Shown: positions 11,215-45,399 of the stretch, piece after piece
How positions within the stretch are numbered: position 1 is the first letter of the stretch
Layout of the letters: every line of letters starts with the position of its first letter
NCBI RefSeq assembly: GCF_988243305.1
Contig: NZ_OZ547136.1
DNA length: 64,000 nucleotides
Reading direction: 5' to 3' (one strand)
Notes under the pieces: model-generated
Databases searched by the model: none
Told to the model about the DNA's origin: nothing
What the model saw: only the letters and a program-made list of their open reading frames with translations
Translations under genes and position numbers: made by a program

Positions 11215-11250
11215 ACCAATAAAAAATGCCAGTCAGCAAACTGACTGGCA
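11215..11250 (-). terminator. Rho-independent terminator downstream of guaA
   Basis: Inverted repeat tgccagtcag(11227-11236)/ctgactggca(11241-11250) with loop caaa; on the minus strand it is followed by a U-run (complement of the A-run 11211-11226). Confidence 0.7.
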
Positions 11251-11294
11251 TTAAAGTTAGTTGGAAAGGCTTAATTTACTATTTATAGCCAGTC

Positions 11295-12872
11295 CTACTC
11301 CCACTCAATGGTAGCTGGCGGCTTGCCGCTGATGTCATACACCACGCGGGAAATACCGTTCACTTCATTGATAATGCGGTTGGAAACGCGACCGAGGAAG
11401 TCATACGGCAGGTGCGCCCAGTGTGCGGTCATAAAGTCGATGGTTTCGACAGCACGCAGAGAAACAACCCAGTCATACTTACGACCATCGCCCATTACGC
11501 CAACAGAACGTACTGGCAGGAAGACGGTGAACGCCTGGCTGACTTTGTCGTACAGGTCCGCTTTACGCAGTTCTTCAATGAAGATGGCGTCAGCACGGCG
11601 CAGCAGGTCACAGTACTCTTTCTTCACTTCACCCAGAACACGAACGCCAAGGCCTGGTCCCGGGAACGGGTGACGGTACAGCATGTCGTACGGCAGGCCC
11701 AGCTCCAGACCAATCTTACGCACTTCGTCTTTGAACAGCTCTTTCAGCGGTTCAACCAGGCCCATCTTCATCTCTTTCGGCAGGCCGCCCACGTTGTGGT
11801 GAGATTTGATGACGTGTGCTTTACCGGTTGCAGAAGCAGCAGATTCGATAACGTCAGGGTAGATAGTGCCCTGCGCCAGCCACTTCACGTCTTCCAGTTT
11901 CAGCGCTTCTTCATCGAATACTTCAACGAAAACGCGCCCGATGATTTTACGTTTTGCTTCCGGATCATTTTCGCCAGCCAGCGCTGACAAGAAGCGATCT
12001 TCTGCCGGTACATGAACAATGTTCAGACCAAAGTGATCGCCAAACATATCCAGAACCTGCTCTGCTTCGTTGAGACGCAGCAGGCCGTTGTCGACGAATA
12101 CGCAAGTCAGGTTTTTACCGATAGCGCGGTGCAGCAGCATTGCAGTCACGGAGGAATCCACGCCACCAGAGAGGCCGAGGATCACTTTATCGTCGCCTAC
12201 CTGCTCGCGGATGCGAGCTACGGCGTCGTCGATAATTTTCGCTGGCGTCCACAGGGCTTCACACTGGCAGATATCACGCACAAAACGCTCCAGCATGCGC
12301 ATACCCTGGCGGGTGTGAGTCACTTCCGGATGGAACTGTACACCATAGAAGCGTTTTTCTTCGTTAGCCATAATGGCAAACGGGCAGCTTTCGGTGCTGG
12401 CTACGGTGACGAAGTCGGACGGGATAGCGGTAACTTTATCGCCGTGGCTCATCCAGACATCGAGCAGCGGTTTACCGTCTGCAGTCAGCGCATCTTCGAT
12501 ACCGCGAACCAGTGCGCTGTCGTTTACGACTTCAACCTGCGCGTAGCCAAATTCACGTTCGTTAGAGGCTTCAACGTGACCGCCCAACTGCATTGCCATG
12601 GTCTGCATGCCATAGCAAACGCCGAATACCGGTACGCCTGCTTCAAAGACATACTGCGGCGCACGCGGGCTGTTTTCTTCGGTGGTGCTTTCCGGGCCGC
12701 CGGAAAGAATAATGCCGCTTGGGTTGAAGTCACGAATTTGTGCTTCTGTCACATCCCACGCCCACAGTTCGCAGTAAACACCCAGTTCACGCACGCGGCG
12801 CGCAACCAGTTGAGTGTACTGAGAACCGAAGTCCAGAATGAGGATGCGATGCTTATGAATGTTTTCCGTCAT
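11295..12872 (-). CDS. guaA: GMP synthase (glutamine-hydrolysing)
   Basis: 525-aa ORF. N-terminus [36 protein letters not shown], class-I glutamine amidotransferase plus ATP-pyrophosphatase domain (SGGVDSSV), C-terminal PATIEWE. Confidence 0.97.
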
Positions 12873-12940
12873 TGACGCTTATTCCGAGGCAAGTGAAACA
12901 GATAATATAAATCGCCCGACATGAAGTCGGGCGAAGAGAA

Positions 12941-14407
12941 TCAGGAGCCCAGACGGTAGTTCGGGGACTCTTTAGTAATGGTCACGTCGTGAACGTGGCT
13001 TTCCTGAATGCCCGCACCGCTGATACGTACAAACTCCGCTTTAGTACGCAGTTCGTCGATAGTACCACAGCCGGTCAGGCCCATACAGGAGCGCAGGCCG
13101 CCCATCTGCTGGTGAATGATCTCTTTCAGGCGACCTTTATAGGCCACGCGACCTTCGATACCTTCCGGCACCAGTTTGTCGGCAGCGTTGTCGCTCTGGA
13201 AGTAACGGTCAGAAGAACCTTTGGACATCGCACCCAGAGAGCCCATCCCACGGTAAGATTTGTAAGAACGGCCCTGGTAGAGTTCGATTTCACCCGGAGA
13301 TTCTTCAGTACCCGCCAGCATGGAACCCACCATTACCGCGCTTGCACCTGCGGCGATAGCTTTGGCGATATCGCCTGAGAAACGGATACCACCGTCAGCG
13401 ATAACCGGAATACCGGTGCCTTCCAGGGCTTCTACGGCGTCAGCAACGGCGGTGATCTGCGGAACACCTACGCCAGTCACGATACGAGTCGTACAGATAG
13501 AGCCAGGGCCAATGCCGACTTTAACCGCGCTGCAACCAGCTTCTGCCAGAGCGCGTGCCCCCGCAGCTGTTGCCACGTTGCCGCCGATGATTTGCAGATC
13601 CGGATATTTAGTACGAGTTTCACGGATACGCTGCAGAACGCCTTCAGAGTGACCGTGAGAGGAGTCGATCAGCAGAACGTCAACGCCTGCGGCAACCAGC
13701 GCGTCAACACGCTCTTCGTTACCCGCACCCGCGCCAACCGCTGCACCAACACGCAGACGGCCTTGCTCGTCTTTACAGGCGTTCGGTTTACGTTCTGCTT
13801 TCTGGAAATCTTTCACGGTGATCATGCCGATCAGGTGGAATTCGTCATCAACCACCAGCGCTTTTTCAACGCGTTTTTCGTGCATTTTTGCCAGCACAAC
13901 TTCACGGGCTTCACCTTCACGCACGGTGACCAGACGTTCTTTCGGCGTCATGTAAACGCTAACCGGCTGGCTCAGGTCGGTAACAAAACGTACGTCACGA
14001 CCGGTGATAATACCCACCAGTTCGTTTTCTTCGGTAACGACCGGGTAGCCCGCAAAGCCGTTACGCTCGGTCAGTTCTTTCACTTCGCGCAGCGTCGTGG
14101 TTGGCAGAACAGTCTGCGGGTCAGTCACCACGCCAGATTCGTGTTTTTTCACACGGCGAACTTCTTCCGCCTGGCGTTCAATGGACATATTTTTGTGGAT
14201 AAAGCCGATACCGCCTTCCTGAGCCAGAGCAATAGCCAGGCGCGCTTCCGTTACGGTATCCATTGCTGCGGAAAGCATAGGGATATTCAGACGAATAGTT
14301 TTCGTCAGCTGGGTGCTGAGGTCAGCAGTATTCGGCAGAACGGTAGAATGAGCAGGAACGAGGAGAACGTCGTCAAACGTCAGAGCTTCTTTAGCGATAC
14401 GTAGCAT
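12941..14407 (-). CDS. guaB: IMP dehydrogenase
   Basis: 488 aa from the ATG at 14407 ([18 protein letters not shown]...); the track ORF extends 23 codons further upstream to 14476. Catalytic-cysteine loop [11 protein letters not shown] and CBS domains present. Confidence 0.95.
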
Positions 14408-15945
<1,538 letters not shown>

Positions 15946-24047: not shown

Positions 24048-24119
24048 GACAGAAACTCCACCGGTTGTTAAACGGACGCTTGTCGCATCAACATATTTTG
24101 CTTAATCCGGGATTAAGCA

Positions 24120-24157
24120 AAATATGCGGAAACAGCATTCCCTTGCGGGAATGCTGC
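24120..24157 (-). terminator. putative terminator downstream of sinI
   Basis: Hairpin cagcattccc(24133-24142), loop ttgc, gggaatgctg(24147-24156), 11 bp after the sinI stop; moderately U-rich tail on the minus strand. Confidence 0.45.
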
Positions 24158-45320: not shown

Positions 45321-45336
45321 GCTTTATACAGGCAAT

Positions 45337-45366
45337 AAAAAACCGCCGAATTTGGCGGTTTTTTAT
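45337..45366 (+). terminator. Rho-independent terminator downstream of sseA (possibly bidirectional)
   Basis: aaaaaaccgcc gaattt ggcggtttttt: GC stem ccgcc/ggcgg flanked by an A-run and a T-run. Confidence 0.8.
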
Positions 45367-45399
45367 TGCTGGTCTGGTTCGCGGCCTTTCCAGCAGGTT

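Follow-up and report, generated by a model that had tools for sequence, protein, structure and literature searches.

The guaB-guaA locus

The window, by which we mean the whole stretch of 64,000 nucleotides that was analyzed, is Escherichia coli DNA. A 601-nt probe around the region discussed here finds its match in 5425 out of 5426 complete genomes of this species, where the site bears the annotation guaA|guaB. Positions are given in window coordinates, which correspond to those of MG1655 (NC_000913.3) minus 2619663. Both genes, guaB (IMP dehydrogenase) and guaA (GMP synthase), are read from the minus strand (Table 1). Their products catalyze the two committed steps between IMP and GMP, and how their ratio is set inside one operon has been little studied. 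The mechanical open reading frame of guaB (12941-14476, minus strand) runs from an upstream ATG and specifies 511 amino acids; the RefSeq version has 488 amino acids and starts at 14407, and in MG1655 the gene occupies 2632604-2634070.

The two genes are separated by a spacer of 68 nt (12873-12940), bounded by the guaB stop codon UGA (12943-12941) and the guaA ATG (12872-12870). In the mRNA sense it reads UGA-UUCUCU-U CGCCCGAC UUCAU GUCGGGCG A-UUUAUAUUAU-CUGUUUCACUUGCCUCGGAAUAAGCGUCA-AUG: a short linker, a hairpin, an interrupted U-tract, and a leader that includes the translation initiation region of guaA. A scan of the minus strand of the spacer found no sigma-70-like promoter. The hexamers TATATT and TATTAT of the tail were considered by eye and rejected as promoter elements, as neither has a correctly spaced -35 sequence.

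The guaA leader, UUUCACUUGCCUCGGAAUUAGCGUCA (12873-12901, minus strand), is conserved in sequence across the Enterobacteriaceae to a degree far above that of the hairpin loop or the tail. Within it, GGAA and GUCAA (GTCAA in DNA) are invariant in all 27 aligned sequences, and the GGA lies 10 nt ahead of the AUG. Judged from this alignment, the conservation is greater than a Shine-Dalgarno sequence alone would need.

Table 1. Features of the guaBA region, in window coordinates
Feature	Position	Strand	Basis
guaB (IMP dehydrogenase) coding sequence	12941-14407	minus	RefSeq-equivalent start; NCBIfam and E. coli RefSeq annotation
Linker UUCUCU, 6 nt, from guaB stop codon to stem	12935..12940	minus	Sequence
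RNA hairpin, 9-bp stem U-CGCCCGAC / GUCGGGCG-A, 5-nt loop UUCAU	12912..12934	minus	Sequence, MFE and centroid folds, terminator-like scan, RNAalifold
Broken U-tract UUUAUAUUAU adjoining the stem on its 3' side, with 7 U among its 10 nt, the first three contiguous	12902..12911	minus	Sequence and scan
guaA leader and translation initiation region CUGUUUCACUUGCCUCGGAAUAAGCGUCA	12873..12901	minus	Conserved sequence across Enterobacteriaceae (alignment)
guaA (GMP synthase) coding sequence	11295-12872	minus	NCBIfam and E. coli RefSeq annotation
Intrinsic terminator at the operon end, after guaA, 12-bp stem then UUUUAUUGGUUUUU	11225..11252	minus	Scan; used as comparator

A stable hairpin with a broken U-tract

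A preliminary description of this DNA had reported a perfect 8-bp stem lying between the guaB stop and the guaA start. The stem is exact as described, with the plus strand reading CGCCCGAC-ATGAA-GTCGGGCG at 12913-12933, and its placement inside the spacer is right. What that description missed was the strand. Both genes lie on the minus strand, and the loop of the RNA is UUCAU; the stem itself is unaffected by the choice of strand because its arms are palindromic, and the U-rich tail is present in the minus-strand (mRNA) sense only. In addition, a flanking U-A pair (12934 with 12912) lengthens the 8-bp core to 9 bp.

The free energy of the hairpin is about -17.7 kcal/mol. The minimum free energy (MFE) of the spacer is -20.2 kcal/mol, compared with -11.2 +/- 2.4 in 200 dinucleotide shuffles (z = -3.8), none of which folded as well. 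The same hairpin is the centroid structure of the spacer and is retained when a context of 168 nt is folded. When the whole window is shuffled, about 1.8 GC-rich perfect hairpins of at least 8 bp arise per 64 kb, which amounts to about 0.002 expected per 68-nt spacer. The hairpin is beyond chance. It occurs once in the 64-kb window, even with up to 3 mismatches tolerated, and each of 5425 E. coli genomes has it at one place.

In a scan for terminator-like sites, the hairpin is the top site of the region, with 9 pairs (7 of them G-C), a loop of 5, and the tail TTTATATTAT. Its stem-loop is of the kind found in intrinsic terminators (GC-rich, about 5-14 bp, a loop of 3-8 nt, on the transcribed strand). 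The U-tract is borderline when held against the near-uninterrupted run of U that such terminators carry, since three contiguous U are followed by alternating A and U, giving 7 U in 10. With only three contiguous U, a leaky site is expected. A d'Aubenton-Carafa-type score, to be read as rough, comes to +20 for the 9-bp hairpin and falls to -7 when the closing U-A pair is left out. On this scale the terminator at the operon end, an element of the same kind on the same strand, scores +24; it differs in its 12-bp stem, in its better U-tract, UUUUAUUGGUUUUU, and in that published full-length transcripts end there.

Leaky Rho-independent terminators are found inside other operons, such as those between prs and dauA and between dapA and bamC, where a GC-rich stem-loop with a U-rich tract lies between co-transcribed genes and is read through into the downstream gene (PMC6131387). 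The guaB-guaA hairpin shares this arrangement, but no termination has been detected at it in the published datasets consulted, its U-tract is broken after three U, and it begins 6 nt from a stop codon. It is terminator-like, short of a proven terminator. It is a well-conserved further example of a familiar element type, and otherwise an ordinary intergenic hairpin.

Conservation of the hairpin

Within E. coli, 5411 of 5425 genomes carry the 81 nt that span the spacer and hairpin without a single change. In 2886 E. coli genomes, identity over the surrounding 601 nt is 95-99%, and this difference indicates that the spacer is under tighter constraint than the coding sequence that flanks it. In the 14 variant genomes the differences fall within 45 nt around the hairpin; in the one variant that was inspected, a G-to-C change breaks the apical pair only.

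A broader sample consisted of one genome per species and contained 80 guaA loci from the Enterobacterales, Aeromonadales, Vibrionales, and Alteromonadales. guaB lies immediately upstream of guaA in all 80, and a GC-rich hairpin is found a few nt past the guaB stop in nearly every spacer. In 70 of 80 cases the spacer folds better than 95% of the shuffles made from it (median z of -2.5). The sequence of the stem varies by clade: CGCCCGAC in Escherichia and some Citrobacter, CGCCCGGC in most Enterobacteriaceae and in the Erwiniaceae, GUGGCC in Photorhabdus, and AAACGGGGC in Aeromonas. Zobellella, Oceanisphaera, and a related MAG have textbook terminators at this slot, e.g. AAACGGGGGG...CCCCCGUUUUUCU. 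Loops are variable, and the tails average 5.5 T in their first 10 nt, where 3.3 would be expected from spacer composition. The stem lies a median of 11.5 nt past the stop codon (6 nt in E. coli), and its distance to the guaA start clusters around 40 nt, which is also the median. In several Vibrionaceae with long spacers (L068, L075, and L080), the strongest hairpin lies 32-39 nt before the guaA start and has no T-tail.

Covariation was assessed in the 37 sequences whose stems belong to the CGCCCGG family. In this family, 93.5% of the cells pair and five of the nine pairs have double-sided changes; none of 500 shuffles matched the observed pairing or covariation, and controls slid along the alignment were about 38% paired. 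RNAalifold, run on 37 related sequences, independently returned the same 8-bp helix. Together, the clade-wise replacement of the stem, the compensatory changes, and the T-rich tails indicate that selection acts on an RNA helix with a U-rich tail behind it, located at the end of guaB. The hairpin is conserved by structure, not by sequence, across the Gammaproteobacteria.

Other hairpins, GCCGGGUGGGCGUAACGCUGCCCGGC and CGGGGUGGGGCGUAACGCUUCACCCCG, follow guaB in Escherichia sp. ESNIH1 (L017:2931-2962), Pseudescherichia vulneris (L021, same position), and Serratia grimesii (L031:2927-2953). These look like REP-type palindromes, which suggests that the slot after guaB can be refilled by a mobile palindrome.

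Transcripts and proteins from guaBA

Published transcript ends bear directly on whether polymerase stops at the hairpin. In the Term-seq data for MG1655 (supplementary file 1 of PMC7815308), a single 3' end is listed for guaB, at 2632596 on the minus strand, which is window position 12933. The end has a low count, near the lowest of the minus-strand values inspected, and appears in one of three condition sheets, whose normalization is unlike that of the first sheet (PMC7815308). At or after the U-tract, the file lists no 3' end under any of the three growth conditions; these lists are thresholded, so weak termination there may escape detection (PMC7815308). Supplementary file 2 gives an internal guaB 3' end at MG1655 2633953 (window 14290, minus strand) (PMC7815308). 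If this file is taken to be the bicyclomycin set, the latter end would mark Rho-dependent termination at about 117 nt from the start of guaB.

The end at 12933 falls on the first C of the 5' arm of the hairpin, 8 nt past the stop codon. Its context fits the elemental RNA polymerase pause consensus, G(-10) Y(-1) G(+1), with the G of UGA at -10, C at -1, and G at +1. The end may be that of nascent RNA held at a polymerase pause or, equally, a cleavage site.

Full-length transcripts give a similar picture of the operon. SMRT-Cappable-seq, with the meaning of the columns deduced from the rows, reports a unit that starts at 2634105, ends at 2630903, and covers b2508|b2507; this end adjoins a known terminator at 2630919 (PMC6131387). 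The tables contain no guaB-only unit and no coordinate within 2632500-2632599, subject to the detection thresholds of the method (PMC6131387). They do contain a novel start at 2632715 (window 13052, minus strand), within the 3' end of guaB, from which a unit of b2507 (guaA) only arises (PMC6131387). Transcripts that begin at this start must pass the hairpin with no ribosome terminating at the guaB stop. An extended -10-like sequence, TGnTACTAT (TGGTACTAT at 13067-13059, minus strand), ends 6 nt upstream of 13052 and places its hexamer at -12 to -7.

Proteomic data give a GuaB/GuaA mass-fraction ratio of about 0.96-1.3 in two tables and about 2.7 in a third (PMC8144880). Together, the Term-seq ends, the SMRT-Cappable-seq units, and the near-equal protein amounts indicate that polymerase overwhelmingly reads through the hairpin in laboratory cultures and that GuaB and GuaA are produced at similar levels. 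With assumed subunit masses, the ratios of the first two tables correspond to a molar ratio of about 1.1-1.45. The tables of RNase E cleavage sites in Salmonella that were consulted have no entry for guaA or guaB. A search of the literature on guaBA (intercistronic, terminator, Term-seq, Rend-seq, RNase E) found no discussion of the hairpin; the original papers on guaB and guaA sequencing lay outside that search.

A proposed terminator next to a stop codon

The preliminary description had proposed that the hairpin acts as an RNA processing or stability element, or as a partial attenuator that modulates guaA relative to guaB. The terminator/attenuator-type anatomy of the hairpin, its conservation, and its compensatory changes speak for this proposal; against it stand the lack of a listed 3' end at the U-tract, the lack of a guaB-only unit in the tables, and a protein ratio of about 1-1.3 in two tables. 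If guaA is attenuated at all during laboratory growth, the transcript and protein data imply that this happens weakly or conditionally.

With moderate confidence, we read the hairpin as the stem-loop of a Rho-independent terminator, weak and leaky, that lies at the 3' end of guaB and would be largely masked by ribosomes in vivo. In reporters, a strong intrinsic terminator loses nearly all activity when a stop codon lies no more than about 8-10 bp upstream, as the terminating ribosome keeps its hairpin from forming; at distances above about 30 bp it works at full efficiency (Li et al. 2016, PMC4824070). The guaB stem begins 6 nt after the UGA, and by analogy with the reporter result we prefer a masked, weak terminator. 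The analogy covers the short distance from stop codon to hairpin and the suppression predicted under coupling; the reporter series used tR2, a strong phage terminator, in a synthetic construct, so that masking at guaB-guaA is carried over from a different terminator (PMC4824070).

The sequence of events would be as follows. A ribosome that terminates on the guaB UGA would cover the 5' arm of the hairpin. While it is there, the hairpin could not form during the time that RNA polymerase is on the U-tract, about 30 nt downstream, and polymerase would read through into guaA. Such masking would explain the dominance of the bicistronic guaBA mRNA. When no ribosome is at the guaB stop, the hairpin would form, and a fraction of polymerases would stop before guaA. 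This would apply to polymerase uncoupled from translation, to a guaB with a premature stop, and to RNA begun at the internal start (13052). Incidentally, the stem may also block 3' exonucleases on transcripts that end there. The net effect in the laboratory would be a small or conditional lowering of guaA relative to guaB.

Bolder versions of this scheme, which we regard as rather improbable, can be drawn. The hairpin, being within reach of a ribosome at the guaB stop, might serve as a translation-gated checkpoint that ends transcription before guaA only if guaB is incompletely translated, a step that a polymerase pause 8 nt past the stop, at the single mapped 3' end, might help, or cleavage at that position might generate a guaA mRNA with a protective 5'-terminal hairpin. 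If either were true, the element would be a dedicated device, present throughout the Gammaproteobacteria, for coupling or uncoupling the two steps of GMP synthesis. A ribosome-masked terminator, for its part, would provide a natural case in which termination efficiency is tuned by the proximity of a stop codon, and it would be a contributor to classical polarity from guaB to guaA. It would also call for caution in annotation and engineering, as deletion of guaB or a shifted stop could unmask a terminator ahead of guaA.

Alternative explanations

Stable stem-loops are known to protect mRNA; the stem-loop at the 5' terminus of ompA and the intercistronic REP sequences that stabilize malE are examples. 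A hairpin of this stability in untranslated RNA could likewise shield the adjacent RNA from exonucleases or RNase E. The guaB-guaA element would then be post-transcriptional, either a barrier to 3' exonucleases that stabilizes the guaB segment after cleavage in the AU-rich tail, or a site cleaved at its 5' foot to give a guaA mRNA whose 5' stem-loop protects it from 5'-end-dependent RNase E. We think this unlikely, even though several observations fit. The tail resembles the single-stranded, AU-rich targets of RNase E and could be one. The only guaB 3' end in the Term-seq list is at the very position where a cut would leave the hairpin flush with the 5' end of the guaA fragment. The fairly constant distance from stem to guaA start and the tail-less hairpins of L068, L075, and L080 (Vibrionaceae) are also in keeping with a role in stability. 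However, the exonuclease-barrier version predicts RNA ends just past the hairpin, where the Term-seq list has none; the end at 12933 has a low count in a single condition, and its fit to the pause consensus means that it may be nascent RNA. Furthermore, T-rich tails are kept in most species, and a pure stability element would not need them. The element differs, too, from the malE example in being single-copy and not REP, and from both examples in having no documented processed ends that fit protection.

The hairpin might instead have no regulatory effect, being a structural insulator that keeps the 3' sequence of guaB off the ribosome-binding region of guaA, or a maintained relic of an ancestral guaB terminator. 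Near-equal levels of GuaB and GuaA, together with read-through, fit an element that is neutral to stoichiometry, and the guaA leader just downstream is both strongly conserved in sequence and unpaired in the centroid fold. Nevertheless, we consider this explanation doubtful: it leaves unexplained the U-rich tails beside the hairpin in most lineages and the textbook terminators at the slot in some, and near-invariance in 5411 E. coli genomes argues for more than a neutral relic. Least probable by far is a role at the level of DNA, as a palindromic protein-binding site or a repeated palindrome of the REP/BIME kind. The arms do form a perfect DNA palindrome, and the hairpins at the same slot in L017, L021, and L031 may resemble REP elements. 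However, stems have been swapped wholesale between clades with pairing retained, as expected of an RNA helix and not of a sequence-specific operator, and the U-rich tail is asymmetric, present on the mRNA strand only. The hairpin is also unlike the E. coli REP consensus, and in place of the dispersed copies by which REP/BIME elements are recognized, the window has a single copy, as does each of the 5425 E. coli genomes.

Alternative folds and known RNA families were considered as well. An attenuator or riboswitch would require a competing structure, and the best competitor, GUCUGGGC pairing with GCCCGAC, reaches -9.1 kcal/mol versus -18.5 kcal/mol for the hairpin. Anti-terminator pairing is absent from the MFE folds of nascent RNAs of 40 and 60 nt; in the 100-nt nascent RNA, part of an arm enters a different, long-range helix. 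Rfam contains no family that matches the hairpin region at threshold. RF02630 (Hrs12) scored 24.7 bits against a gathering threshold of 70 and was rejected as a generic match to a terminator hairpin from another locus, and weak hits of the stem to CRISPR-DR9, JA04, and Yfr1 were put down to chance. In Erwinia amylovora, Hrs12 is an Hfq-regulated sRNA, the orthologue of MicF, and lies beside ompC (PMC4070566). The hairpin belongs to no Rfam family and is neither a riboswitch-type attenuator nor a REP element.

Other inverted repeats in the window

The window contains further long perfect inverted repeats, of 16 bp at 24092-24126, of 10 bp at 24133-24156, and of 16 bp at 45332-45369 (GCAATAAAAAACCGCC). 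The last of these looks like a bidirectional terminator.
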